The position numbers and the translations under genes are program-made. Shown piece after piece: positions 2,715-58,142 of a stretch of DNA of 64,000 nucleotides. Position 1 is the first letter of the stretch; the number at the start of each line of letters is the position of its first letter. This DNA is from an uncultured Clostridia bacterium (lineage in GTDB: Bacteria; Bacillota; Clostridia; TANB77; CAG-508): positions 1,300,692 to 1,364,691 of the forward strand of contig OZ006978.1 in the NCBI GenBank assembly GCA_963931155.1, given 5' to 3'. The notes beneath the pieces are model-generated. The model worked only from the letters and a program-made list of their open reading frames with translations, made no database searches and was not told the DNA's origin.

Positions 2715-3926
2715 ATGAAATTATATAAAAAAATATTGACAGTTCTAATATTAATAACTATATATGCATATATTTGCAATATAACAATGTTTCCAAATAG
2801 TATTATTTTAATGCAAGGGGAAAATATAAAAATAGATACAGTTTTAGGAATAAGCATTAAAAATAAACAAACCATGCAAGCATCAAGTAATTTAAATGAG
2901 AAATTAACAGAACAAGTAGGTAAAAAAGATTTAGAGTTAAATTTATTTAACATTATTCCTGTAAAAGATGTAACAGTTAATGTTATACCTAAAACAACAG
3001 TAATTCCACTCGGAAAAACAATAGGAATGAAATTATATACCGAAGGTGTACTAGTGGTGGGAATGTCTGAAATAGAAGGAAAAAAACCATATGAAAACTC
3101 TGGCATAGAAGCAGGAGACAGAATAATAGAAGTAAATAATAAAAAAATAACAAGCTCAGATGAACTTACAGAATGTGTTAATGCTTGTAATGGAAGAAAC
3201 ATAGAAATAAAATATGTTAACAATGAAGATAAAATAGTATTGACTCAAATAGAACCTGCTAAAACATCAAATGATGAATATAAAATAGGACTTTGGGTCA
3301 GAGATGCAGCTGCCGGAGTAGGAACTATTACATTTTATGAACCTTCAACAGGAAGTTTTGCTTCTCTTGGGCATGGGATTAATGATGTAGATACTTATGA
3401 ATTAATAAATATAGCAAATGGTGAATTAGTAACAGCAAAAATACTAGACATAGTGAAAGGAAAGGACGGTATTCCTGGAGAGATAAAGGGAAGTATAGAC
3501 AATAGTGTAACTATAGGTGATATTTCTAAAAATACGGATTTTGGAGTTTATGGAACTATAACAAATACAAATGCACTTAATATACAAAACCTAGCAGAAA
3601 TGGAAGTGGCAGATAGAAGTGAGATAAATACAGGAAAAGCTTATATTCTATGTGAATTAGAAAATGGTAAAACAGAAAAATACGAAATAGAAATACAAAA
3701 ATTATTTAAAGATAATAATCAAGATAATAAAAGTATGTTAATAAAAATAACAGATGCAAGGCTTATAGAAAAAACAGGAGGAATAATACAAGGAATGAGT
3801 GGAGCACCTATAATACAAAATGGTAAATTTATAGGAGCTGTAACACATGTGTTGGTAAATGATGCAAAAGTTGGCTATGGAGTATTTGCAGATTTAATGA
3901 TAAAACAGTTGAAAGAGGTAGATTAA
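2715..3926 (+). CDS. spoIVB: SpoIVB peptidase (stage IV sporulation protein B, S55)
   Basis: N-terminal TM, PDZ-like region, and motifs GLWVRDAAAGVGTITFY and GMSGAPIIQNGKFIGAVTHV typical of SpoIVB. Start chosen at the internal ATG (MKLYKK) preceded by AGAAGG. The ORF is open from 2682. Confidence 0.75.
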   Translation: MKLYKKILTVLILITIYAYICNITMFPNSIILMQGENIKIDTVLGISIKNKQTMQASSNLNEKLTEQVGKKDLELNLFNIIPVKDVTVNVIPKTTVIPLGKTIGMKLYTEGVLVVGMSEIEGKKPYENSGIEAGDRIIEVNNKKITSSDELTECVNACNGRNIEIKYVNNEDKIVLTQIEPAKTSNDEYKIGLWVRDAAAGVGTITFYEPSTGSFASLGHGINDVDTYELINIANGELVTAKILDIVKGKDGIPGEIKGSIDNSVTIGDISKNTDFGVYGTITNTNALNIQNLAEMEVADRSEINTGKAYILCELENGKTEKYEIEIQKLFKDNNQDNKSMLIKITDARLIEKTGGIIQGMSGAPIIQNGKFIGAVTHVLVNDAKVGYGVFADLMIKQLKEVD

Positions 3927-5062
3927 TGAAAGAAAAGGGAAGAGTTTCAATTTTATTAATTGTATTAACTATATTAATAATGTTAGTATTTGGTTTTCTA
4001 ATATATCAAATGGTATTTTCAGACTTTTTTGGACTTATGCCTAAAGGGGAAGGACAAATTACTATAGGTGGGATAATAAATAGTTTAATTCCGGCAAGTG
4101 CAGAAGCAGATACGCAAATAGAAAATGTATCAGCACATGAGCCAATTATTGTAGATGACAATAAAGCCGGTAATAATACATCATCTACAGCACAAAATAG
4201 TTATTACTATAATCAATTAGATGCATATGGTAAAATAATATATAAAGGTTTTGAAGATAATAAAGAAAATATGAAATCTGGAACATATAAAATTGATTTC
4301 GGAACAAAGTTTAATGATTTATTAAACTCAGAAGGAGGAGAAGAAACTTTAAATATAGCATTTCAATCAGCTTGGAATGCGTATACATATGATCATATGG
4401 ATTTATTTTATATTGATGTTGAAAAACTTACTTTAATTACAAAAACGAGAACAATCGGAAGAAAATCAACACATACAGTAGAATTATCTAATGGAGATAA
4501 TAATTCATACTTAAAGCCAAATTTTAGTAATAAAGAAGAAATTGACCAAACATTAAATTTATTAAATGCTATGAGAAATGAAATTACAAATCAAGTATCT
4601 CAATATGACAATGTGGAAAAAATGAGACAAGTACATAACTGGCTAATTAACACAGTAGAATATGATATAAATTTCGAATCAGAAGAACCATATTCAATAG
4701 TAGGAGCACTTGTAGAAGAAAAAGCAGTATGTGAAGGATATGCAAGAGCATATAAATATATAATGGACGCAATAGGAATTCCTTGTATATTAGTTAGCGG
4801 AATAGGAACAAACTCTAATGGAGAAACAGAATCACACGCATGGAATTATGTTCAAATAAATAATAATTGGTATGCAATAGATACAACATGGGACGATCCC
4901 GTTGCAATAGGAAATGCCTATATAACTGAAGAAGATAGATATGAAAACTTCTTAAGAGGATCTAACAAGTTTTTTATAAATCATAAAGAAGATGGATATT
5001 TATCACCAGGAAGTATAAAGTTTAAATTTCCAACATTAAGTACAGAAGATTATAATTATTAA
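3926..5062 (+). CDS. transglutaminase-like cysteine protease superfamily protein
   Basis: N-terminal TM. C-terminal core has the Cys/His/Asp pattern (AVCEGYARAY ... ESHAWNYV ... DTTWDD) of transglutaminase-like domains. Confidence 0.7.
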   Translation: MKEKGRVSILLIVLTILIMLVFGFLIYQMVFSDFFGLMPKGEGQITIGGIINSLIPASAEADTQIENVSAHEPIIVDDNKAGNNTSSTAQNSYYYNQLDAYGKIIYKGFEDNKENMKSGTYKIDFGTKFNDLLNSEGGEETLNIAFQSAWNAYTYDHMDLFYIDVEKLTLITKTRTIGRKSTHTVELSNGDNNSYLKPNFSNKEEIDQTLNLLNAMRNEITNQVSQYDNVEKMRQVHNWLINTVEYDINFESEEPYSIVGALVEEKAVCEGYARAYKYIMDAIGIPCILVSGIGTNSNGETESHAWNYVQINNNWYAIDTTWDDPVAIGNAYITEEDRYENFLRGSNKFFINHKEDGYLSPGSIKFKFPTLSTEDYNY

Positions 5063-5291
5063 AAAAGTTTGTTAAAGTTTAAGTAAGTATTACGTATTGT
5101 CATATAAACGTTACTGTTCAACATAAAGTGAAATTTTCGTCTTAGCAGTATGTATAAAATAGGGCTTGCAATTATTAAGTTTTTGTGATACAATACTTAA
5201 TGTTAAAAAGTACCTCTACTTAGTTATAGGAAAATAACACCACTATAACTCAGTTGAAGGCAAATAACATAAATTTTAGGAGGTGTATATT

Positions 5292-27917: not shown

Positions 27918-27934
27918 GGAGGAATTTGTTATAT

Positions 27935-28471
27935 ATGTCTGATATAAAGGGTAAATATATGAAAATATTAGATGAATTAGAATCTAATATTAAAAATAAA
28001 GAAGATTTAGCTATAGCAAAAGAAAAATTCATGGAATTAACCGTAGTTTTTATGGATATAGTTGATAGATTGACTTTTTTAACAGATGAAAGAATAAAAA
28101 ACATTGAAGAAAAACAAGTAGAAATTAATAATAGATTAAGTAATGTACAGTCAATTGTAGATGGAATAGAAGAAGATATTTATGATGAGGAAGATGAAGA
28201 AGATGGTTATGAATTTGAAATAGTTTGTCCTTATTGTAATTACGAATTTACCACTGATATAGCAGATGAAGAAAGAAATGAAATAAAATGTCCTAAATGT
28301 AATAATATAATAGAATTAGATTGGAATACAGATGAAGAGTATGCTTGTTCAGGAGATTGCTCACATTGTCATGAACAGGTTGCAGAAGATAATGTAGAAT
28401 ATAACAAAAATTCTAAAAACAAGAAGAAAAAAGATGATAGTTCAGAAGCAAACAATGAAGATGATATGTAA
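27935..28471 (+). CDS. hypothetical protein with C-terminal CxxC zinc-ribbon motifs
   Basis: SD AAGGAGG. Motifs CPYCNYEF, CPKCNN, CSHCHE. Confidence 0.55.
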   Translation: MSDIKGKYMKILDELESNIKNKEDLAIAKEKFMELTVVFMDIVDRLTFLTDERIKNIEEKQVEINNRLSNVQSIVDGIEEDIYDEEDEEDGYEFEIVCPYCNYEFTTDIADEERNEIKCPKCNNIIELDWNTDEEYACSGDCSHCHEQVAEDNVEYNKNSKNKKKKDDSSEANNEDDM

Positions 28472-28694: not shown

Positions 28695-29316
28695 TTAATC
28701 AAACAAAGTTAAAGGATTTATATATTCATCATTAATTCTTACTCCAAAATGAAGATGTGGACCAGTAGTTGCTCCATTAGTTGGATTTCCGTTTTCATCA
28801 TAATATTGATTGCCTTTAACCCCATAGACGTTTTTAGGACCAACATAACCAACAACTTGTCCCTGAAGTACAGAATCACCTTTTTTTACTATATAAACAG
28901 GAGAAACATGACAATATGTAAATTTCATATTATCTTTAGAAAGTGTAATAGTATAACCACCTCCACCTAAGAAACCTGTAAAAGTTATTATACCAGAAGT
29001 AACAGCGATAAGTTTGCTACCTTCAGGTGCACCAATATCTAGTCCAGAATGATATGTAGAAGCACCGAGATGTAGGTGAGGTTCTATAACCAAAATATGA
29101 ATTTATTGTAGTATATCCAGGAGAAGGCCATACATATCCAGAAGAACTAATATCCATTGATATAATAGAATTAGAAGAAGATGGTGAGATATAAGCTAAA
29201 GAAGAGTCAGACATAAAAGGTGTGAAAAACATAGAAATAAAAAGAACTAAACAAATTAAAAAAATCATTAAAAATTTAAAAGGCATAAAAAAACTATTAG
29301 ACATAAAAACCTCCAT
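28695..29316 (-). pseudogene. M23 family metallopeptidase, frameshifted
   Basis: N-terminal ORF (29023-29316) has the signal peptide and WPSPGYTTINSYFGYR. C-terminal ORF (28695-29093) has EPHLHLGASTYHSGLDIGAP and HLHFGV. Frame break at about 29090. Confidence 0.65.
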
Positions 29317-29349
29317 TGTAATCTAATAGCCCCCGATTATAATTGCTTT

Positions 29350-29874
29350 TTAATTATCATTTTTATTAGATTTAAAAGCAAAAAATTTACTAATAAAGAA
29401 ATTCAAAATAATTACTATTATTGTTATTAAACATTTACTAACTATTATAGGAAAAGGCGCATAATTAAATAGCAAAGTTCCACCAAAAGATTCAATAAAC
29501 ATTGTAAACAATCTTCCTAAAATAAATTTTGAAAATTCTATAAATTTTTCTCCAAAGCCTTGAGCTTCAGAATGAAAAACTAAATCTTTATTTGTAACAT
29601 AAGCAACTAATACTGCAAGAACTATTGCAATATTATTAGCTGAAGTAGAATTAATTCCAAAAAAAGTAGATAATACGTAAAAAGAACCTATATTGACTAA
29701 AGTGGTTAAGGCGCCAAAAACCACGTACAATATAACTTCTTTACTAAAAAGCTTTTGGCAAAAACTTTTTTTGAATTTTTTTTGTTCAATTAACTGATTG
29801 TTATCTAATTCGTTTTCGTTAGTTTTTTTTATATTATTAATTTTTGTATTTAAGTTTTTATTTAAATCTTCCAT
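29350..29874 (-). CDS. GtrA family membrane protein
   Basis: GtrA-like four-TM layout. Start trimmed to the internal ATG (MEDLN) because the longer ORF would overlap tRNA-Trp. Confidence 0.65.
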   Translation of the reverse strand: MEDLNKNLNTKINNIKKTNENELDNNQLIEQKKFKKSFCQKLFSKEVILYVVFGALTTLVNIGSFYVLSTFFGINSTSANNIAIVLAVLVAYVTNKDLVFHSEAQGFGEKFIEFSKFILGRLFTMFIESFGGTLLFNYAPFPIIVSKCLITIIVIILNFFISKFFAFKSNKNDN

Positions 29875-29885
29875 AAAAAATCCTT

Positions 29886-29961
29886 TGGCAGGGGTACTAA
29901 GATTCGAACTCAGACTTGTGGTTTTGGAGACCATCGTGCTAACCATTAACACTATACCCCT
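29886..29961 (-). tRNA. tRNA-Trp (anticodon CCA)
   Basis: Cloverleaf folded by hand: acceptor AGGGGUA/UACCCCU, D stem GUGU/GCAC, anticodon loop CUCCAAA, T arm CUGAG-UUCGAAU-CUUAG, discriminator G, CCA encoded. Confidence 0.9.
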
Positions 29962-30010
29962 ATAAAATTACTTTATTATCTTAGCACAAAAAAAAAATTA
30001 ATGCAAGAGA

Positions 30011-30062
30011 AAAAAGAAAAAAACATGAAAAAAGTAGAGGCCCCCGTTTGCACGGAGGCCTC
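30011..30062 (-). terminator. GC-rich rho-independent terminator of the Cys-rich gene
   Basis: gaggcccccg-tttgca-cggaggcctc followed on the - strand by a U-tract. Confidence 0.7.
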
Positions 30063-30099
30063 AGATAGAACCAGCTCTGAATTTAGTCCGTCAGAAGAG

Positions 30100-30543
30100 T
30101 TACTTCTTCCAGAAGTAGAGCTGGAGCTTCTCCTCATCCACCTTGACGATGACCGCCAAGAAGCGATCGTCCTCGAACAAGAACGTGTTTGCCGCCTTGT
30201 CGTTGCAGACTTCCCAGTGGTCGTCCTTGAAGTAGACGCCAGGTATGGCGGTAGGGTTCAGCATGTCGAAGCACGACAGCTTAACCTTGGTGTTGGGATA
30301 ATCGCAGATGGGGGTCAAGACATGAATCGCCGTAGCGATCTCGATGCCCGTGGTGCCGGTCGAGCCGAGGAGTGCATCCACGACATAGGGGTCGCAGTTG
30401 TATGCACATGTGCCCTCGTCATAGACCATGTAGGCGGTCCGGCTGCCCAGAATAGCTAGCACCTTGTCGGTGTTATCACTCTTCCGAGCGTAGTGAGAGA
30501 AGCAGTTGTGAGGACAATAGCCCTCAGATTCGAACTTAGCCAT
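30100..30543 (-). CDS. hypothetical Cys-rich protein (CPHNC ... CAYNC), 147 aa, GC-rich
   Basis: About 53 % GC against a ~28 % background. Perfect SD AAAGGAGG 8 nt upstream. Own promoter and terminator. Confidence 0.6.
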   Translation of the reverse strand: MAKFESEGYCPHNCFSHYARKSDNTDKVLAILGSRTAYMVYDEGTCAYNCDPYVVDALLGSTGTTGIEIATAIHVLTPICDYPNTKVKLSCFDMLNPTAIPGVYFKDDHWEVCNDKAANTFLFEDDRFLAVIVKVDEEKLQLYFWKK

Positions 30544-30619
30544 AGTTGTATACCTCCTTTAGTTGTAATGTGCCGATATGGCTAGTATCGACAATTGTAT
30601 CCCCATTTGGGGCTTACAA

Positions 30620-30652
30620 GTAAATTATACCACAATTAACATAAAAAGGCAA
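30620..30652 (-). promoter_or_regulatory. near-consensus sigma-A promoter with extended -10 (TTGCCT-17-TGGTATAAT)
   Basis: Read on the - strand upstream of the Cys-rich gene. A CCCCAAATGGGG hairpin sits in the 5' UTR. Confidence 0.55.
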
Positions 30653-30806
30653 ACTGACGAAGTATGTAAAAAAATTAAAAGTATAATTTTTAGGACTTTA
30701 TTAATAGAGTGATATAATTAAATATCACTTACATCTATATTCCTTGAAAACATAGGTAAATTATGGTAAAATAAATAATATAAATTGAAAAAATGGAGAT
30801 GAGCAT

Positions 30807-31802
30807 ATGGATAATTTTATTATAGATGAATTTGAAAATTCAAAGCCACCAAGAAAAGAGGAAGGCAAAAAACAACATTCGCTTGAAGGCAAAAGAAGAA
30901 AAAGTATTATAACAATATTTGAACAATCTGGTGGATTAATAGGACCAGAAGAAATTGCAGATGCTTTAGATATTGATTTAGAATTAGTGAAAAGAATATT
31001 AGGAGTAAGGAGAATAGAACAATATGAAATATTAGTAGGTAAAAAGAAACCTACTATACCTAAAAGAGATCGTAGGAAAAAAGCGAATCCATCTGAAGAA
31101 AAAGAAGAAGAAAAGTTAGATAGAATTATTATTGAAAGAAATAAAGAAATATTTGAATTAAGTACTCAAGGAATGAGTTTAGCTGAAATTCATGAAAAAA
31201 CAGGAATAAGCATAGATTTATTAAAAGAAATATATATGTCTTTAGGATTAAATATATATACTGACGAGGAAATAGAAGAGATGAGAAGACAAGCTGAATC
31301 TGTTAGCCAAAATCCAAAAACAGTTATTGCGCCAGAGACTACTGAGAAAAGTGCGAGTGGAGTAAAAGGAGAGATAAAAGCAGATAGCAAAAAAATGGAC
31401 AGAGCTATAGATTTGCAAGAAGGTGGTAAAACTAAAGAATACGGAGAAAGCAGAGTTCAAGAAGAAGTGGATAGTGAAAAGGTAAGTTCAAAAGGAGATG
31501 TAGATGAGCAAGAAAATGGTGAAGAAGGAAATTCTAAAAATAAAGAACAAGAACTTGAAGAATTAAAAGCTAAAATAACAAGTTATGGAGACATTGGAAA
31601 AATGATAAAAGGATTTATAGCAGAGGGGAGAATTGAAGATGCAATAAAATATGGCAAATATTTTATGAACAATTCAGACTTTTTAACAAAAATAGAAAAA
31701 GATAATTTATTTGTTTTAATAGAATATATGAAATCAATAAAAACACAACATTTTCAACCACGTTGTATGGGAGAAATTTCAGATGAAGAAGAAATGAGAT
31801 AA
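30807..31802 (+). CDS. K/R-rich protein with two DeoR-like HTH modules
   Basis: HTH modules (SIITIFEQSGGLIGPEEIADALDIDLELVKRIL; EIFELSTQGMSLAEIHEKTGISIDLLKEI). C-terminal region similar to that of the 33308 protein. Confidence 0.6.
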   Translation: MDNFIIDEFENSKPPRKEEGKKQHSLEGKRRKSIITIFEQSGGLIGPEEIADALDIDLELVKRILGVRRIEQYEILVGKKKPTIPKRDRRKKANPSEEKEEEKLDRIIIERNKEIFELSTQGMSLAEIHEKTGISIDLLKEIYMSLGLNIYTDEEIEEMRRQAESVSQNPKTVIAPETTEKSASGVKGEIKADSKKMDRAIDLQEGGKTKEYGESRVQEEVDSEKVSSKGDVDEQENGEEGNSKNKEQELEELKAKITSYGDIGKMIKGFIAEGRIEDAIKYGKYFMNNSDFLTKIEKDNLFVLIEYMKSIKTQHFQPRCMGEISDEEEMR

Positions 31803-31823
31803 AAAGTTGATTAAAAGCATATA

Positions 31824-31852
31824 ATTGACAATTTACATAAAACATACTATAA
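31824..31852 (+). promoter_or_regulatory. consensus sigma-A promoter TTGACA-17-TATAAT
   Basis: Exact consensus hexamers with 17-nt spacing, about 95 nt upstream of the GC-rich ORF at 31948. Confidence 0.6.
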
Positions 31853-31947
31853 TAAAGAATAAGCCTTAAAAGGCATAGTAGCAAGCATAAAAGTTAGGAG
31901 GACAACCTAGTAAGGTTTGTAGTATTGAACAGTAAAAAAGGAGAAAA

Positions 31948-32475
31948 ATGAGTAGTGTAGTTGTGAGGTTTAAAGAGGAGATGACTTTTCCTCACGTAGA
32001 AGATGCAGGTAAAATCAAATGGCGGGGAGGTTATATCCTAGATGATGTCACAGGAATCCTGGAAGGATACATCGAGGAAGACATCAATGGGGTTCCCGCT
32101 GATGAACAGCGCCGTGCATGGATTTTAGGAATTTGCAAAGGTGCTAGATGGTGCTTCAACTGGTTCGGAAGTAAGAACTTTGACTTCCCTATCACAATCA
32201 GATTCTTTGATGGCAATTTGAACGAGGGAATTCTAGTAGCACTAGGGTCGAAAGACGATAGAAACATTGATATGATTGAAGTCGGCTATTCGACTATTCA
32301 AGCGACAAGACTATCCGGAGAGTGCACAGAAGCAAAAGAAGTAATCAAGAGCATCGTTGAAGATATTAAGGACAGTATCTATCTCCCTGAATTTGACATA
32401 ACAGCTATTGCCCTAAATGATATTGATAATTGGGCTAAATCCTACTACCGACGGAAGACGGGACGTCCTTGGTAA
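31948..32475 (+). CDS. hypothetical protein, 175 aa, GC-rich, no recognised family
   Basis: About 43 % GC. Strong SD AAAAGGAG. Followed by a cctcctttttaggagg hairpin. Confidence 0.6.
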   Translation: MSSVVVRFKEEMTFPHVEDAGKIKWRGGYILDDVTGILEGYIEEDINGVPADEQRRAWILGICKGARWCFNWFGSKNFDFPITIRFFDGNLNEGILVALGSKDDRNIDMIEVGYSTIQATRLSGECTEAKEVIKSIVEDIKDSIYLPEFDITAIALNDIDNWAKSYYRRKTGRPW

Positions 32476-32551
32476 CTAACGGTGCTAACAAAAAAAGAAC
32501 AATGTTCTTTTCCTCCTTTTTAGGAGGTTTTTCTTTTTGTCTTTTTAATGA

Positions 32552-32767
32552 TATAATAGGAATTCCTTCTTATAGTCGGAAACCTAAATTGGCAAGAACA
32601 AAGAACAAGGTTGCCCCCTTGTTCTTTGTTCTTAGTTCTGTAATAGGAAATTTCTCCGAAATTCCTATTACAGAAAAAGGCTATAATCGCTATTGCCTTT
32701 GAGATTTCCTCCTTGACGTCGGAAACTCAAATCGGCAAGAACAAAGGGCGACTGCGTCGCTTTGTTC
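32552..32767 (+). repeat. MITE/PATE-like element: diverged core + 32-nt palindrome + full core, abutting the ssrA 3' end
   Basis: Same hairpin and core as at 28512-28672. The partial core keeps the terminal stem through covarying changes. Confidence 0.6.
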
Positions 32768-32782
32768 AAATCAAAATGTAAT

Positions 32783-33142
32783 TGGTGGAGATGAGGAGAG
32801 TCGAACTCCTGTCCAATAATCCTTCCACATGAACTTCTCCGAGTGCAGTTTGTTAAAAAAATTCCCTAAAAAGAAATTAACAAACAAATTTGTTTTTTAG
32901 GTAGTCAAATAAATACCCTTCATTCCTATGACACGGAAATAAATTCGTTTCCCACATATATGACGTTTTATCTAAAGCTGTGGGGAGCTAAAGAAAAACG
33001 AGCTACTAATCTTAAGCAGCGTAAGCTAATTCTTTATTATCAGCGTTTATATTTAAATTTCGCTTTTTTATAGTGGCCAAAGCGACCATCCACTACTCGC
33101 TATTCATACTTCTGGGTTATTGTCGAAACCAAATACATCCCC
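32783..33142 (-). ncRNA. ssrA: tmRNA (ssrA)
   Basis: On the - strand: 5' GGGGAUGUAUUUGGUUUCGACA, 3' GGAGUUCGACUCUCCUCAUCUCCACCA (T-arm and acceptor). Internal tag ORF reads ...GCU GAU AAU AAA GAA UUA GCU UAC GCU GCU UAA. Confidence 0.9.
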
Positions 33143-33307
33143 ATAAAAAGTACAATAATAATTATACTATAATTATAAAAAAAAAACAAGATATATGATT
33201 ATTACAAACTAAATATTATTTGTAATGTTCATATGATTTATTTACTTGAAAAAAGTATTTGAAAATGTTATTATAATTATGTAAATTAATTATAGGGAGA
33301 AAATCGA

Positions 33308-34768
33308 ATGCCAACTAAATTAGATGAAACAGGAGATAGAAGAAAACAAATATTAGAATTATTAAACGAACAAGGTAGAACTATAGAAGAAGTTTATACT
33401 TTTTTTAGTAATGTACCTCATAATGTAATTGAAAGGGATATAAGATATCTTATTAGAAATAAATTATATCAGCCATATAATATAATATTGAGTAGAAAAA
33501 TAGAAAATGATAATAGTAGAAGTGGAGAAAAAACAGATACAAATAGTGAAACTGAAGGCAACGTTGAGAACACAGAAAAAGAAGATAATTTAACAAGACA
33601 AGGAAGACGACCAACAAGAAGGAAAAAAAAGAAATCACCATTTGATGCTAAAACAAGAAGAGAGAAAGTATTACAAAGATTAAAAAACACTTTAAAAACG
33701 CAAGAACAAATTGCATCAGAATTAGGAGTATCAAAGGGAGTAATTTCTACTGATATACAATTTTTTATAATAAGTGGAATTATAACACCAGAAGAACATA
33801 AAACTAGAAAAAAACAAATAAAACAATTGGCTAAACATAAAAAATCACCCCAAATAGAACAAAGAAGGAAGCAAATATTAGAGTTAATACATAGTACAAA
33901 TATGACACAGAAACAAATAGGAAAAGAAATAGGTTTATCGCAAACAGCGGTTTCGAAAGAAATAAGATATTTAGTAAGTATGGGATTAATATCACAAGAA
34001 ACTTTGGAAAATAGAAAAAAACAATACAAAAGAAATAAAAAAGTAAGAAGTATTACACCAAAAAAGAAAAAAGAGCGAAAAGCATCGAATATGAAAAGAA
34101 AGAGAATAGGGCAAGTGTTGTATTTAATAAAAAATAAATATATGGCTCAAAGTGAGATAGCTGTATTACTAGGAGTATCAAGAAAAACTATATGTAAAGA
34201 TGTAGAATACTTAGTGGAAACAGGTATGCTAAAAAAAGAAGAAGTACAAAGTGCGGCAAAAAAAAGAGTACAAATAAGAAGAACAAGAGTAATTGAATTA
34301 ATAAGAAGAGGAAAATTACCTAAAGTTTTAAGAAAGAGTATTGCAGAAGAATTAGGTGCTGGAACAGCTACTATTTCTGTGGATGTAAAAGTTCTAATAG
34401 AGCAAGGTTTGATTGAAGAAGACGAAAAAGGAGAGTTAAGAGTAGTAGAATCTAAGATTGCAGAGAGTGAATTACTATCAGATGCATTATATTTAGAACA
34501 ACAAGAACAAGAGGAAGATAGTTTAAGTATGACTTCAGAAGAAAAAGAATGTTTATTGATGATGTTTAGACAAATAAGAAAATTGTCATTTGGGGGAAAT
34601 TTAGATAAGGCAATTAGAAATCTAGGATTGGTAAAAGAAATGTTTGGTTTTTCTAAAGAAAAATTAAAACAATTAGAAGATATAGAAAGTTTTTTAAGAG
34701 AAGAAAGCAATAAAAAACAAAAAAATGCTGACAGAAAAGCATCTGGAGAGGAGATAGGAGATAGATAG
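33308..34768 (+). CDS. protein built from five tandem DeoR-like winged-HTH modules separated by K/R-rich linkers
   Basis: Repeated R(R/K)KQILEL(L/I)... followed by HTH (TQEQIASELGVSKGVISTDIQ; TQKQIGKEIGLSQTAVSKEIRYL; AQSEIAVLLGVSRKTICKDVEYL; SIAEELGAGTATISVDVKVL). Confidence 0.65.
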   Translation: MPTKLDETGDRRKQILELLNEQGRTIEEVYTFFSNVPHNVIERDIRYLIRNKLYQPYNIILSRKIENDNSRSGEKTDTNSETEGNVENTEKEDNLTRQGRRPTRRKKKKSPFDAKTRREKVLQRLKNTLKTQEQIASELGVSKGVISTDIQFFIISGIITPEEHKTRKKQIKQLAKHKKSPQIEQRRKQILELIHSTNMTQKQIGKEIGLSQTAVSKEIRYLVSMGLISQETLENRKKQYKRNKKVRSITPKKKKERKASNMKRKRIGQVLYLIKNKYMAQSEIAVLLGVSRKTICKDVEYLVETGMLKKEEVQSAAKKRVQIRRTRVIELIRRGKLPKVLRKSIAEELGAGTATISVDVKVLIEQGLIEEDEKGELRVVESKIAESELLSDALYLEQQEQEEDSLSMTSEEKECLLMMFRQIRKLSFGGNLDKAIRNLGLVKEMFGFSKEKLKQLEDIESFLREESNKKQKNADRKASGEEIGDR

Positions 34769-34832
34769 ATTGTGTTTTATGTGAAATTGTGGTAAAATAT
34801 AATATAGGTACCCAAACATTGGAGGTATTACA

Positions 34833-35300
34833 ATGGAAGATCTGGAACTGGCAAATGTGGTTCTGGAAACAGTCCAACCGTGTGACGATGCAGAAGAGTT
34901 CTTCTACATCGCACAAGAAGGAGGTGTTAGAGAGTACGTCGGATTCATGTATCCAACTAGTCTGGAAAAGGCACGAGAAATCTTGGAGTTCTTGTGCGAT
35001 ATGAGATTCGAGTGCTTCAAGATTGTTGAGGAAGATACAGGTGACATGGTCGGAATCATTTTCGGCGACCCCCTAACCAGTACTATACTGGATGTTTCAT
35101 ACTTCATCGGTGATGAGTATCGATGCATGGGGTACTGCTCATCAGCTGTACGGCAGTTCGAAGAGTATCTGAGGGAGGAGACTTGCTACACAACCATGAG
35201 ATTCTTCGTAAGAGAAGATAACGCGGAGTCTCAGGGCGTGATGAACAAGCTTGGAATCCCTAATGCTTTCGGCAATGTCTACATGCTCGACCTTGACTAA
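34833..35300 (+). CDS. GNAT family N-acetyltransferase, GC-rich
   Basis: About 47 % GC. GNAT motifs (VGIIFGDP, YFIGDEYRCMGYCSSAVRQFEEYL, EDNAESQGVMNKLG). SD GGAGG and a TGG-extended -10. Confidence 0.7.
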   Translation: MEDLELANVVLETVQPCDDAEEFFYIAQEGGVREYVGFMYPTSLEKAREILEFLCDMRFECFKIVEEDTGDMVGIIFGDPLTSTILDVSYFIGDEYRCMGYCSSAVRQFEEYLREETCYTTMRFFVREDNAESQGVMNKLGIPNAFGNVYMLDLD

Positions 35301-39890: not shown

Positions 39891-42089
39891 ATGTCAGAAT
39901 ATAAAAATAAAAAAATTGAAGATGTAATAGCAGTGGTGAAAAAGAAGAAAGGAAGACGTGATACAAAATTAATACAACGAGCTTATGATTATGCAAATGC
40001 AAAACATGGAGACCAAAAAAGAAAATCTGGAGAACCATATATAATTCACCCATTGCAAGTATCTTATATTTTAGCTGACTTAGGTATGGACGACAACACT
40101 ATTTGTGCTGCACTTTTACATGATGTTTTAGAAGATACTGATACTACATACGATGATTTAGTAAAAGAATTCAACCAAGAAGTTGCATATATGGTAGATG
40201 GTGTTACAAAGCTTAGTAAGTTGCAATATGCAAGTGTTGAAGAACAACAAGTTGAAAACTACAGAAAAATGTTTTTGGCAATGGGAAAAGACATACGTGT
40301 AATCCTAATTAAACTTGCGGACAGACTTCATAATATGAGAACTTTAAAATATTTATCTAGAGATAGGCAAATAGCAAATGCTAAAGAAACAATGGAACTT
40401 TATGCACCACTAGCAAATAGACTAGGTGTATATTCATTAAAATGGGAACTTGAGGATTTATCATTTAAATATTTATATCCAGAAGAGTATAGAGAACTAG
40501 TAGAAGGTATAAATAAAAAAAGAGAAGAAAGACTTAAATTTATAGAGCAAATAATGGATCAAATAAGAGAAGAACTAAGAAATCAAAAAATAGATGCAGA
40601 AGTAACAGGAAGAGCAAAGCATTTATATAGTATATATAGAAAAATGAAAAGAGATAATAAAACATTGGATCAAATATATGATTTATTTGCATTAAGAATA
40701 TTGGTAAACTCAGTAAAGGACTGTTATGCAGCACTTGGGGTAGTACATGATTTATATAATCCAATGCCAGGAAGATTTAAAGACTATATTGCTGTGCCAA
40801 AACCAAATATGTACCAATCATTACATACAACTCTAATAGGTCCAAAAGGAACACCATTTGAAGTACAAATTCGTACATGGGATATGCATAGAGTTGCAGA
40901 ATATGGTATTGCTGCACATTGGGCATATAAAGAGTCTAGCTTTTTTAGTGGAAGAAAATCAAATGTAAAAGTACAAGATGATAAATTAGCATGGGTAAGA
41001 GAAACCTTGGAATGGCAAAGCGAAATGCAAGATCCAGATGAATTTATGTCTACCTTAAAGAAAGAATTATTTGTAGACGAAGTATATATTTTTACACCAA
41101 AAGGTGCAATAAAAGTACTTCCAAAAGGATCAACACCAATAGACTTTGCATATCAAATACACGAACAAATAGGACATAAAATGGTTGGCTGTAAAATAAA
41201 TAGTAAAATGATGCCAATTACAACAAAACTAAAAAATGGTGATATAGTTGAAATAATAACATCAGACCAATCAAAAGGACCAAGTAGAGATTGGCTAAAA
41301 TTTGTAAAAAGCTCAAGAGCGAGAAATAAAATATTAGGTTGGTTTAAGAAAAATCAAAGAGAAGAAAATATAGAAAAAGGAAAAGACATAATAGAAAGAG
41401 AACTAAAGAAGATTGGTGTAAAACATGATGATTTATTTAAAAATGAATTTGTACAGCCGGCATTAAACAGATATAAATATAATAGCTTAGATGATATGTA
41501 TGCAAGTGTTGGATTTGGCTCAATATCTGCAGGAAAAATTATATCTAGAATGTTAGAAGAGTATAGAAAAGTCCATAAAGAAGATGATATAGAAAAAACA
41601 CTACAAGAATTATCAAAAGAAAAAGTGCATAGAGAAAAACCATCATCAAATGGTGTTATAGTAAAAGGAATAGACAACTGTTTAGTAAAACTATCAAGAT
41701 GCTGTAATCCAGTACCAGGAGACGAGATAATAGGATATATAACAAGAGGAAGAGGGGTATCTGTACATAGAACAGACTGTGTAAATGCAAAAAATCTATT
41801 ATCAGACGGAAACAGAATAATAGATGTATACTGGAGCAACCAAAAAACAACATATAGTGTAGACATAGAAATATATGCAAATGACAGATCAGGACTTTTA
41901 GCAGACATAATAAATGTATTAGGAAATACAAAATGCAAATTACAAGCAGTAAATTCAAAAGCAAACAAAGAAAAAATTGCAATTACTGAAGTTACAGTAG
42001 AAGTAGAAAATATAGAACAACTAAACCAAGTATTAAAAGCATTAAGAAAAGTAGATAGTGTATACGAAGTAAAAAGAAAGAAACAATAA
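39891..42089 (+). CDS. relA: bifunctional (p)ppGpp synthetase/hydrolase Rel
   Basis: HD hydrolase, synthetase (YQSLHTT, EVQIRT), TGS and ACT domains. 732 aa. Confidence 0.95.
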   Translation: MSEYKNKKIEDVIAVVKKKKGRRDTKLIQRAYDYANAKHGDQKRKSGEPYIIHPLQVSYILADLGMDDNTICAALLHDVLEDTDTTYDDLVKEFNQEVAYMVDGVTKLSKLQYASVEEQQVENYRKMFLAMGKDIRVILIKLADRLHNMRTLKYLSRDRQIANAKETMELYAPLANRLGVYSLKWELEDLSFKYLYPEEYRELVEGINKKREERLKFIEQIMDQIREELRNQKIDAEVTGRAKHLYSIYRKMKRDNKTLDQIYDLFALRILVNSVKDCYAALGVVHDLYNPMPGRFKDYIAVPKPNMYQSLHTTLIGPKGTPFEVQIRTWDMHRVAEYGIAAHWAYKESSFFSGRKSNVKVQDDKLAWVRETLEWQSEMQDPDEFMSTLKKELFVDEVYIFTPKGAIKVLPKGSTPIDFAYQIHEQIGHKMVGCKINSKMMPITTKLKNGDIVEIITSDQSKGPSRDWLKFVKSSRARNKILGWFKKNQREENIEKGKDIIERELKKIGVKHDDLFKNEFVQPALNRYKYNSLDDMYASVGFGSISAGKIISRMLEEYRKVHKEDDIEKTLQELSKEKVHREKPSSNGVIVKGIDNCLVKLSRCCNPVPGDEIIGYITRGRGVSVHRTDCVNAKNLLSDGNRIIDVYWSNQKTTYSVDIEIYANDRSGLLADIINVLGNTKCKLQAVNSKANKEKIAITEVTVEVENIEQLNQVLKALRKVDSVYEVKRKKQ

Positions 42090-56665: not shown

Positions 56666-57097
56666 ATGGTATATACTGAAGCAACTGAAAGAGCGATGAG
56701 AATCGCATATAATGCACATCATGGACAACTTGACAAATCAGGAGTACCTTACATTTTCCACCCTATTCATTTGGCAGAACAGATGGGAACGGAGGCGGAG
56801 TGCATTGTTGCACTTTTGCATGACACGGTGGAGGACACCGATGTGACCCTAGATGAGCTGTCAGAACAGTTTTCGAGCAGTATCATCGAGGCTTTGAAGC
56901 TTCTTACACATGACAAGTCTGTGGACTACTTCGACTATGTTAGGATGGTGAAGGACAATCCGATTGCAAGGAAAGTTAAGCTTGCAGATCTAAGACACAA
57001 TAGTGACATGTCTAGAATCAAAAATCCAACTGAAAAGGATTGGAGGCGTGCAAAGAAGTATCAAAAAGCGATTGAAATGTTGAATAGGGAGGAATAA
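56666..57097 (+). CDS. small HD-domain (p)ppGpp-hydrolase-like protein (small alarmone hydrolase, SAH-type)
   Basis: 143 aa aligning with the HD domain of the window's own Rel (HPIHLAEQ..., ALLHDTVEDT). GC rises to about 45 % after the first 100 nt. Confidence 0.8.
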   Translation: MVYTEATERAMRIAYNAHHGQLDKSGVPYIFHPIHLAEQMGTEAECIVALLHDTVEDTDVTLDELSEQFSSSIIEALKLLTHDKSVDYFDYVRMVKDNPIARKVKLADLRHNSDMSRIKNPTEKDWRRAKKYQKAIEMLNREE

Positions 57098-57230: not shown

Positions 57231-58142
57231 ATGAGGGTTACAGACACCCTGGAATTTCCTGATATGCAGGAAATTCTGGAAAAAGCGCACAACATCGATG
57301 ATGTTTGGACTGCGCTTATCGCATGGTTCAGTGAGGATCCAAACAACTTGGAGAAGGTCGCATGTGCGAACAAGCTCATCGAGTTTAACAACATGCGGAA
57401 TTCGGATCTGGTCATCAAGCTTGATCAAGATGTTCGTGAAATCAAAGATGTCCTTCGCGGGATATCCAGAAGATACGGACACACGATTACAGTGACCAGG
57501 CGTCAAAAGGCGCTCATTGGTGTCATCGCAAAGATGGTGATACTAATTCAGCGAGGTGAGAAACGAGGCACGAATGTGTTCTCCTCTCTTGAAAGTCTGA
57601 AAGACTTTATCGGCATTCGAATTGTTGCTCAGACTGGAAAGAAGGATACACCAAAAAGCCAGCAGATGGCTTACGACATCATGAACGAGGTGCTTAGGTT
57701 CCTTGTTGTCGACAAGAAGAACACTCTGTCTACGGTCACACAGGATCGCACGGTGCGAGAGCTGGATGGCATCTTGATTCCGAAGGAGTCTGGAGTTTTG
57801 GACGTCTTCAGGGACAACGTGAAGGACTACTTTTACTATGCCAAACCCAATGGCTACCAGTGCCTGCACGCTGTTCCCATGGGACCTGACCAGCAAACGG
57901 TCGAGATTCAGGTAAGGACTCAAGAAGCCGAAGTGCGAGCAGAGTATGCCGAGGCAACTAGCCATGAAGCTCACAGACTGCTTCGCTATGAAGACTTCGA
58001 GATTCCGGTCGACCTGTCTAGGGTCGACATCGAAGGTGTCACCTTGGTTGAATTCGAGGGCGAAACTTCGGTTCCTAGTGGCACCATCTACGATAGAGTC
58101 GGACTCGTTAGCTCGGTTGATCCATTGAACCTTTTGCGTTAG
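57231..58142 (+). CDS. RelA/SpoT-synthetase-domain protein (small alarmone synthetase / toxSAS-like nucleotide pyrophosphokinase), GC-rich
   Basis: About 48 % GC. Aligns to the Rel synthetase core: DFIGIRIVAQT (DLFALRILV), NGYQCLHAV (YQSLHT), EIQVRTQ...AEYAEA (EVQIRT...AEYGIA). Confidence 0.8.
   Translation: MRVTDTLEFPDMQEILEKAHNIDDVWTALIAWFSEDPNNLEKVACANKLIEFNNMRNSDLVIKLDQDVREIKDVLRGISRRYGHTITVTRRQKALIGVIAKMVILIQRGEKRGTNVFSSLESLKDFIGIRIVAQTGKKDTPKSQQMAYDIMNEVLRFLVVDKKNTLSTVTQDRTVRELDGILIPKESGVLDVFRDNVKDYFYYAKPNGYQCLHAVPMGPDQQTVEIQVRTQEAEVRAEYAEATSHEAHRLLRYEDFEIPVDLSRVDIEGVTLVEFEGETSVPSGTIYDRVGLVSSVDPLNLLR

Follow-up and report, generated by a model that had tools for sequence, protein, structure and literature searches.

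The locus

The stretch of DNA considered here (the window) comprises 64,000 nucleotides of contig OZ006978.1 from an uncultured bacterium of the class Clostridia. It contains a gene encoding a 147-aa protein, preceded by a sigma-A-type promoter and a structured leader, and followed by a strong terminator hairpin. The codons of this gene are opposite to those of its AT-rich host, and an excess of GC was observed for its relatives in all other AT-rich hosts considered. From the comparison of these genes, the odd composition of the family looks selected, rather than a relic of recent gene transfer.

The features of the locus are listed in Table 1. The promoter matches ten of the twelve consensus positions, has the TG extension, and is kept in the orthologues and in distant family members. 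The transcription start, at approximately 30617, was inferred from the position of the -10 box. The hairpin CCCCAAATGGGG (positions 30612-30601) is nested in a longer GUA...UAC stem that begins at this predicted +1. The core of the Shine-Dalgarno box is invariant or nearly so in an alignment of 14 sequences. The terminator hairpin (30062-30037) has eight GC pairs in its stem and a folding energy of -27.9 kcal/mol (z = -3.9), which was reached in none of 200 shuffles. The first-pass annotation, made from the letters of the window, had listed a TTGCCT promoter with a 17-nt spacer, a perfect Shine-Dalgarno box, a 5' stabiliser-like hairpin and a GC-rich intrinsic terminator. All these elements are present at the coordinates given there, and the compact unit with a textbook expression context that it described is a genuine monocistronic unit.

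Table 1. Features of the window in and around the gene of the 147-aa protein
Feature	Position	Strand	Basis
Conserved neighbour: gene of tRNA-Trp(CCA), located 139 nt beyond the stop codon and having a separate promoter	29886..29961	-	RNA gene scan
Antisense open reading frame (ORF), 152 aa, codon-opposite frame; by-product, no gene	30001..30459	+	family-level stop comparison
Hairpin with an 11-bp stem and a GCAA tetraloop, followed by a T run; intrinsic terminator or 3' protection	30027..30062	-	fold energy
Coding sequence of the 147-aa protein, uncharacterised family	30100..30543	-	ORF calling, homologues, dN/dS about 0.15-0.4, AlphaFold2 pLDDT 93.5
Small GC hairpin in codons 7-11, AGGGC-UAUU-GUCCU, overlapping the conserved G-Y/F-C-P peptide	30511..30524	-	predicted fold
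Start-codon segment UAUGGCUA, 8 bp complementary to the leader element 30584-30577	30537..30544	-	predicted pairing
Shine-Dalgarno box AAAGGAGG, 9 nt before ATG	30553..30560	-	sequence
Second leader hairpin GUCGAUA / UAUCGGC; loop and 3' side hold the anti-start element UAGCCAUA (30584-30577)	30572..30592	-	predicted fold
5'-terminal hairpin of the predicted transcript, GUAAG-CCCC-AAAU-GGGG-AUAC	30597..30617	-	predicted fold
Near-consensus sigma-A-type promoter: TTGCCT (30652-30647), 17-nt spacer, TG-extended TATAAT (30629-30624)	30624..30652	-	sequence, orthologues
Operator-like near-palindrome TTTATGTTAAT inside the promoter spacer; family consensus TTTAYRTAAA	30635..30645	-	conservation, composite matches
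Second spacer-motif promoter, motif inverted (ATTTACATAAAA), before ORF 31948-32475	31825..31853	+	pattern match
175-aa ORFan, GC content at third codon positions 0.41; putative member of the promoter class	31948..32475	+	third-position GC, promoter pattern
tmRNA gene, 2.2 kb upstream of the 147-aa gene	32783-33142		RNA gene scan
Third spacer-motif promoter (TTTTATGTGAAAT), before the GC-rich GNAT gene	34770..34798	+	pattern match
155-aa GNAT (Acetyltransf_3), GC content at third codon positions 0.54; putative member of the promoter class	34833..35300	+	family match, third-position GC

Base composition of the gene and its family

The GC content of the coding sequence is 54.3% (0.49, 0.37 and 0.77 by codon position), close to the first estimate of 53%, and the coordinates given then for the ORF were right. 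The mean GC content is 28.8% in the window and about 29% in the genome. The GC content at third codon positions (GC3) of the remaining genes of the window is 0.08-0.19, with the exception of five GC3-rich outliers, and the excess in the 147-aa gene is far beyond the distribution for the window. The codon usage is opposite to that of the host: AAG makes up 94% of lysine codons versus 13% in the background, and CAG 100% of glutamine codons versus 5%. The codons CTC, CTG, CGC and CGG, whose frequency in the host is about 0.00, are frequent, and TTA, AGA, TCA and CAA do not occur at all. The bias ends exactly at the boundaries of the ORF; the promoter, the leader spacers and the flanks are AT-rich.

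Reassignment of CGG, an arginine codon recoded in some low-GC bacteria, was ruled out. In the window, CGG occurs as the codon of Arg35, a nearly invariant residue of the family, and thus is read as arginine.

The first-pass annotation had also allowed for the reverse-strand ORF (Table 1) being the conserved one. In the five orthologues from the genus, as well as in locus L024, an antisense frame of 152-217 codons is indeed open across the gene. However, six loci of the family (L027, L028, L030, L032, L033, L035) have 2-6 stops in it. Antisense stops correspond to the sense codons TTA, CTA and TCA, which GC-rich usage avoids, and thus the antisense ORF is open as a by-product. It is extremely improbable that the conserved product is the antisense ORF, or that the gene is dual-coding, or that it is a structured non-coding RNA. 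The open frames and the highly structured predicted transcript could be taken in favour of such explanations, whereas the interrupted frames, the substitution pattern, which fits the sense frame, the absence of Rfam matches, and the lack of covariation support for a global fold oppose them.

Family DNA from 22 loci was compared, with the host GC content taken from the flanks. In hosts with GC content below 33%, an excess was observed in 18 of 18 loci: GC3 of the family gene is 0.34-0.90 versus 0.08-0.22 in the neighbours. In hosts with GC content of 36-47%, none of the four loci has an excess, and GC3 of the family gene matches that of the neighbours (0.29-0.55). The five orthologues from the genus, residing in loci of 26-31% GC, have GC3 of 0.59-0.90.

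According to a two-state model, the G/C versus A/T state of synonymous third positions in the neighbouring genes is 67-90% randomised between the five species. Thus neutral decay from GC3 of 1.0 would leave 0.38-0.62 or less, whereas 0.59, 0.70, 0.77, 0.80 and 0.92 were observed. Between species pairs, G/C-ending synonymous codons are retained at 0.79 in the 147-aa gene versus 0.27 in the neighbours. Parsimony applied to singletons yielded 17 changes from G/C to A/T versus one in the opposite direction, but this result was set aside as uninformative, because the flanking genes show a mirror-image bias, as expected of majority-state parsimony. Many lineages share the GC3 effect, and this, along with its direction and size, speaks for maintenance and against leftover amelioration.

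One possible cause of such maintenance is gating by codon supply. Host-rare codons would tie translation to low-demand tRNAs, and the protein would be made best, or only, under starvation, stress or specific tRNA availability. Precedents are the bldA (TTA) system of GC-rich Streptomyces, of which this would be a mirror image, and the selective-charging theory. In the 147-aa gene, CTC, CTG, CGC and CGG account for 32-42% of leucine and arginine codons, AAG, CAG and GAG stand in place of AAA, CAA and GAA, and the other genes of the promoter class described below are likewise GC3-rich. Two published sources argue that codon choice tunes expression under starvation (10.64898/2026.02.22.707322; PMC3783181). 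However, codons ending in T are tolerated and only those ending in A are purged, and the adjoining tRNAs (Trp-CCA, Gly-UCC, Leu-UAA) do not decode the rare codons. Further, GC3 equal to that of the neighbours in hosts of 36-47% GC fits an absolute requirement for GC better than selection for relative rarity. We consider codon-supply gating to be quite unlikely.

Yet another explanation is a local bias of mutation or repair instead of selection, for example GC-biased gene conversion at a frequently recombining cassette, or a reduced rate of GC-to-AT mutation where the DNA is very highly transcribed or forms a stable duplex. Conversion biased to GC has been suggested to occur in bacteria (PMC4450053), and the fast evolution of the gene at both nonsynonymous and synonymous positions is compatible with frequent allelic exchange. 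On the other hand, the bias coincides exactly with the extent of the ORF, and the within-species diversity is very low (0-2 single-nucleotide polymorphisms, too few for the use of their spectrum). Moreover, GC3 of up to 0.90 in a genome of 26-30% GC far exceeds what is expected of biased gene conversion in bacteria. Thus this explanation is very unlikely.

Genomic context and inheritance

The identical protein is encoded on 21 contigs, and eight of these, retrieved from several studies, have identical neighbours. Orthologues with 57-71% identity were found in four further species, all named 'uncultured Clostridia bacterium' (loci L009, L015, L017, L018). The gene order common to the five sister species is variable genes, the 147-aa gene, tRNA-Trp, GtrA, M23 peptidase, and, after further genes, EF-P. 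The flanking proteins are mostly 85-98% identical, with synonymous divergence (dS) of 0.3-0.8; the identity is 65-91% for GtrA and a 178-aa ORF. The same arrangement of the family gene, tRNA-Trp, GtrA and M23 was observed in a different genus (L038), where the family member is 38% identical.

The region between the tmRNA and tRNA-Trp genes (29962-32782) differs by species. Here it encodes proteins of 331 and 175 aa, and elsewhere either proteins of 203-205 aa and 130-161 aa or one of 294 aa. The GC-rich gene beside tRNA-Trp is constant within this otherwise variable, integrase-free hotspot.

No integrase is encoded between tmRNA and tRNA-Trp, and a repeat search in 29300-33400 yielded no att-like repeat and no copy of the 3' end of the tRNA or tmRNA. 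A scan of viral contigs and tblastn searches yielded no family relatives in viral contigs, phage records or plasmids. The unit had been likened initially to a designed or mobile one; this view has to be abandoned, as the gene is chromosomal and syntenic in the five sister species and L038, and lacks an integrase, att repeats and mobile relatives. By its sequence context, the 147-aa gene is a vertically inherited chromosomal transcription unit of a single gene.

In about 5 of 11 independent contexts, the family gene has a tRNA gene at most 500 bp away (Trp, Gly-UCC twice, Thr-CGU, Leu-UAA). This, together with the atypical composition (GC3 of 0.77 versus 0.13) of a gene located 139 nt from tRNA-Trp and 2.2 kb from tmRNA, could point to an ancient acquisition from a GC-rich donor, for example with an element that integrated at tmRNA or tRNA-Trp, followed by incomplete amelioration, so that the GC content would have no function. 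Indeed, the codon profile resembles that of an organism with approximately 55-65% GC, and the gene resides in a variable 3-kb stretch. In the sister species, GC3 varies between 0.59 and 0.92, and the synonymous divergence is 2-3 times that of the neighbours; decay of G and C under AT pressure would yield both. Finally, the HD_4 and RelA_SpoT-like genes at 56.6-58.1 kb of the window, which are also GC3-rich, resemble accessory modules.

However, the synteny predates the split of the five species, and the distant copy in another genus has the same context. Four of the five GC3 values (0.70-0.92) are above the neutral ceiling of 0.38-0.62, and the retention of G/C-ending codons, 0.79, exceeds the neutral expectation of about 0.5 or less. 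As the excess was observed in all 18 AT-rich host lineages, many independent transfers would be required, always from donors richer in GC. The absence of an integrase, att repeats and relatives in phages, plasmids or viruses also disagrees with transfer. We consider an ancient acquisition unlikely.

In one host of 36.5% GC (L043, approximately 3850-4000), the family gene adjoins a CRISPR array with the repeat GTGTCAATTCCTCATAGGTACGGTATTACAA, a gene encoding a fusion of reverse transcriptase and Cas1 (RT-Cas1), and Cas2.

Candidate operator in the promoter spacer

The promoter consensus of the family, TTTGCnATTTTATGTAAAT(T)RTGGTATAAT, is kept at the nucleotide level between members with protein identity of 25-40%. 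In most family loci, the spacer contains the motif TTTAYRTAAA, and the same motif was found, in either orientation, before other GC3-rich genes. We constructed a composite pattern consisting of a -35-like hexamer, the TTTAYRTAAA element in either orientation, and a -10 box. The window contains three matches, each before a GC3-rich gene (Table 1). In 14 loci (218.5 kb), the pattern has 20 matches, compared to 1.8 +/- 1.2 after dinucleotide shuffling. Only 13% of the ORFs are GC3-enriched, yet each of the 20 matches is followed by such an ORF. Besides the 147-aa family, the matches involve five gene families, all of them ORFans with the exception of GNAT.

We infer that TTTAYRTAAA is a putative operator of a dimeric regulator. 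To our knowledge, it fits none of the sites of WalR, PhoP, PlcR, CcpA, LacI-type regulators, Fur, PerR and TcdR-type regulators. Since at least two other GC3-rich genes of the window (the GNAT gene and the 175-aa ORFan) share this promoter type, the 147-aa locus appears to be a part of a small co-regulated set.

In locus L042, the family gene is situated directly 5' of a gene for a GNAT of the Acetyltransf_3 family. The Met-Ala N-terminus is nearly invariant in the 147-aa family. An enzyme and substrate pair formed by GNAT and the 147-aa protein is a speculative lead.

The gene adjoining tmRNA (33308-34768, plus strand) encodes a 486-aa protein with approximately five tandem repeats of the winged helix-turn-helix domain (matches to MarR_2, HTH_11 and ArsR-like domains). 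The sequence TTATGTAAA is located just 5' of its start, at 33277. Proteins with such repeats are encoded in the same island of the sister species L015 and L018. The 486-aa protein is a candidate regulator binding the spacer motif.

In other genera, spacer-motif promoters were also observed before small ORFans of 86-96 aa with GC3 of 0.38-0.51 (L039, 5689-5949; L040, 6118-6408, minus strand; L018, approximately 4807-5097). The C-terminus of the L040 protein, ...FILYFKKQ, resembles the terminal YFFKK strand of the 147-aa family.

RNA structure

A 5' hairpin starting at the predicted +1 or +2 was found in 12 of 17 family loci (the window and 11 of the 16 others), with stem sequences differing by lineage. 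The GCAA-looped 3' hairpin is recurrent throughout the family.

In the minimum-energy folds of most lineages, AUG and codons 2-4 are paired with a leader element situated 25-43 nt upstream, and the Shine-Dalgarno box is looped out. The predicted probability of AUG being unpaired is 0.01-0.13 in seven loci, and 0.01 in the transcript of the window. The pairing involves UAGCCAUA and UAUGGCUA in the window, and UUGCCAUU and AAUGGCAA in L028 and L030. There is a compensatory change in the duplex, UAGC/GCUA in the window versus UUGC/GCAA in L028. Compared to shuffled leaders, the duplex is significant in L015, L024, L028, L030 and L039 (p <= 0.024) and borderline in the window (p = 0.056); the Fisher combination over 12 lineages yields p of about 1e-4.

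The coding regions of the family fold at -0.28 to -0.39 kcal/mol per nucleotide, compared to -0.17 for EF-P. All nine tested family genes are more stable than synonymous permutations that keep both the protein and the codon usage (z from -0.8 to -5.9, mean -2.8). In the same test, three other GC-rich genes of the window had z of -1.8 to -2.7, and 14 ordinary genes averaged -0.57.

The GC hairpin in codons 7-11 is predicted in nearly all family transcripts. However, its pairs scarcely vary, and thus selection at the RNA level cannot be separated from selection at the protein level. Rfam scans, with both the gathering threshold and E-value, yielded only tRNA and tmRNA, apart from one sub-threshold match resembling a terminator.

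The protein family

Searches of Pfam, NCBIfam, PHROGs, PADLOC and PDB sequences with the 147-aa protein and with the family profile yielded nothing. Thus the early observation that no family could be recognised holds for curated libraries, and no match to a common housekeeping family was found in them. A word-indexed search of 5.8 billion proteins produced only five clusters, with 57-100% identity, and 126 related cluster representatives were obtained when 1.84 billion representatives were scanned in full with a HMMER profile. All relatives are approximately 130-190 aa long and are annotated solely as 'hypothetical protein'. As far as seen in these searches, the family seems to be confined to uncultured, mostly small-genome, AT-rich Clostridia. 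It is frequent in gut and other host-associated metagenomes.

The family signature is MAxYExxG(Y/F)CPxNxF ... LGDRxxYMVY ... GTLGIEIA ... IPxCxY ... GRKIxCxDxxNPxQIP ... EDERYLVxI ... VxxYxFKK. In an alignment of 41 members, Y41 and D93 are the only invariant residues, and G8, P11, L32, G33, R35, A70 and D125 are conserved in at least 90%. From its conserved residues Y41, D93, R35, D125 and E68, the protein may be a small enzyme or may bind a ligand. Between the sister species, the nonsynonymous divergence (dN) is 0.20-0.34 and dS is 0.6-2.1, with dN/dS of 0.15-0.4 among the five orthologues; the gene is fast-evolving, yet under purifying selection.

The AlphaFold2 model built from the 41-sequence alignment has pLDDT of 93.5 and pTM of 0.89 (an earlier run on five sequences, with pLDDT of 50, was not used). 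Foldseek found no significant match to this model in PDB or BFVD. The best PDB matches, to the VOC (glyoxalase-bleomycin-resistance) fold, have a weak local likeness in the C-terminal beta-sheet and helix. However, with E of about 1, probability of at most 0.14 and TM of 0.2-0.25 the match is not meaningful, and no fold is assigned. Judging by the model, this is a soluble alpha/beta protein with a fold unseen in solved structures. In all searches made here, no known protein family, fold, RNA family, defence system or mobile system matched the gene.

The first-pass annotation had noted the motifs CPHNC and CAYNC and three more cysteines; there are indeed seven cysteines, at positions 10, 14, 46, 50, 80, 91 and 113. 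It had derived from the motifs a metal-binding or redox fold. In favour of a cysteine-based site, C10, C46, C80 and C91 are invariant within the genus, and among the displayed rows of the alignment of 41 sequences, most contain C10, which belongs to the G-Y/F-C-P motif, and many contain C80. However, C14 and C50, the second cysteines of the two CxxxC motifs, are replaced in sister species by A/S and T/G, respectively, and no cysteine column of the alignment is invariant or reaches 90% conservation. Thus a metal or redox site formed by cysteines is unsupported. As there is also no sequence or fold match to a metalloprotein or a thioredoxin-like family, such a function is highly improbable.

The family protein of L026 has a duplicated C-terminal beta-hairpin module.

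Possible mechanism

We propose that the vertically inherited gene, with its GC-rich sites under selection, produces a repressor-gated and structurally protected mRNA. A dimeric DNA-binding protein would bind the palindromic TTTAYRTAAA and gate the near-consensus sigma-A promoter. When the promoter fires, the resulting mRNA would be protected from decay and controlled at initiation of translation. The protection would be provided by the hairpin at the first nucleotides, the stably folding GC-rich coding body, and the GCAA-capped 3' hairpin, whereas the leader helix pairing with the start codon would act as a translational gate. Selection would hold the GC-rich synonymous sites against the strong AT mutation pressure of the genome. 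The likeliest benefit would be RNA structure and stability, that is, a long-lived or stored, translationally gated message. The sequence elements, the synteny, the GC3 excess of the family, the high retention of G/C-ending codons, the link of the spacer motif to GC3-rich genes and the computed excess of structure are observations, whereas the repressor, the longevity of the mRNA and the gating belong to the proposal. We estimate that this reading as a whole has nearly, though not quite, an even chance of being correct.

Several points weigh against it. Firstly, the two-state decay model is crude, and the G/C-ending codons of the neighbours may be a biased, fast-decaying class. Local sequence context might reduce the mutation rate in GC-rich DNA, and the span of GC3, 0.34-0.90, is wide for a simple threshold requirement. 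Secondly, RNAalifold found no conserved global fold in the family coding regions (covariation term +6.4); thus selection, if any, would act on generic structure or composition, and not on a defined RNA. The z-scores of the permutation test may partly stem from local clustering of GC. Thirdly, TTTAYRTAAA is missing from the family promoters of L028, L030 and L042, and from the two other GC3-rich genes of the window at 56.6-58.1 kb. Finally, the proximity of tRNA genes fits either co-location of highly transcribed genes with structured RNAs, or integrative insertion.

A broader possibility is that small AT-rich gut Clostridia have a regulon of monocistronic genes with the palindromic spacer operator and selected GC-rich coding sequences, yielding structured, nuclease-resistant, translationally gated mRNAs. 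The 147-aa gene would be its most extreme and most widespread member, possibly with an N-acetyltransferase partner. This extension is tentative and, in our opinion, rather doubtful.

Comparison with known systems

In Gram-positive bacteria, a long half-life of an mRNA is classically determined by a stem-loop right at the 5' end, together with a very strong Shine-Dalgarno box and a strong 3' hairpin. Known mRNAs with 5' stabilisers in Firmicutes include the B. subtilis aprE leader, the B. thuringiensis cryIIIA STAB-SD, and ermC. Similarly to the aprE and cryIIIA stabilisers, the locus has, in silico, a stem-loop 0-2 nt from the predicted 5' end, a strong Shine-Dalgarno box and a strong 3' hairpin. 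On the other hand, the coding sequences of aprE, cryIIIA and ermC are AT-rich as is typical for their hosts, whereas here the coding sequence is GC-rich and more structured than its synonymous permutations. Further, unlike the situation in 5'-stabiliser mRNAs, the start codon is predicted to be sequestered, and the architecture is conserved across the family together with an operator-like motif.

Leaders sequestering the start codon or the Shine-Dalgarno box include RNA thermometers and translational riboregulators. Like these, the locus is predicted to form a duplex at the start of the coding sequence, where AUG and codons 2-4 bind a part of the leader 25-43 nt upstream, and there is a compensatory change between lineages. 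However, no Rfam family matches it, and AUG, rather than the Shine-Dalgarno box, is paired.

The genes with the spacer motif are analogous to the bldA (TTA-codon) regulon of Streptomyces, as both would be co-regulated sets marked by codons contrary to the genome composition. A bldA target contains TTA at one or a few positions, all translated by a single dedicated tRNA. In the 147-aa gene, by contrast, atypical codons make up nearly the whole sequence, there is no obvious dedicated tRNA, and hosts of intermediate GC content do not show the effect.

The locus also resembles islands at tRNA and tmRNA genes, in the sense of the Lawrence-Ochman concept, by its atypical composition, the position beside tRNA-Trp and near tmRNA, and the variable local content. 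It differs from them in having no integrase or att repeats, synteny across species and genera, GC3 above the neutral level, and no mobile homologues.

The single expression elements are thus classical. What seems to be new, with moderate confidence, is GC-rich coding kept by selection in AT-rich genomes throughout a family and tied to an operator-bearing promoter; no description of it was found in limited literature searches. Atypical composition is usually taken as a sign of recent horizontal transfer, whereas the 147-aa family keeps GC-rich codons through speciation, which is a caution against calling islands by composition alone. If selection for mRNA structure or stability is the cause, this would be a natural bacterial case of synonymous composition as a regulatory layer. 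If the regulon exists, a set of genes would have synonymous base composition as a heritable regulatory trait. The locus also adds a confidently modelled protein family without a known fold.

Other observations in the window

Just after EF-P (27926-28471, plus strand), there is a gene conserved in all sister species that encodes a protein of 178-181 aa with an acidic tail and zinc-ribbon-like motifs CPYC...CPKC...CSGDCSHC.

A 65-nt direct repeat (32560-32624 and 32703-32767; copies 72% identical and 143 nt apart) is located directly downstream of the tmRNA 3' end. Each copy contains, besides an AAGGAGG-like stretch of the minus strand, a perfect or near-perfect 17-bp hairpin (e.g. 32594-32610 with 32617-32633). 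These repeats could be duplicated terminator or small RNA units, or else remnants of an old attachment site.

Two adjacent GC3-rich genes encode an HD_4 protein (56666-57097, plus strand; 143 aa, GC3 of 0.44) and a RelA_SpoT-like nucleotidyltransferase (57231-58142, plus strand; 303 aa, GC3 of 0.57). Each gene has its own TG-extended promoter, and there is a terminator between them. The pair resembles a module of a small alarmone hydrolase and synthetase, similar to toxSAS. The gene of the long Rel protein (39891-42089) has ordinary composition.

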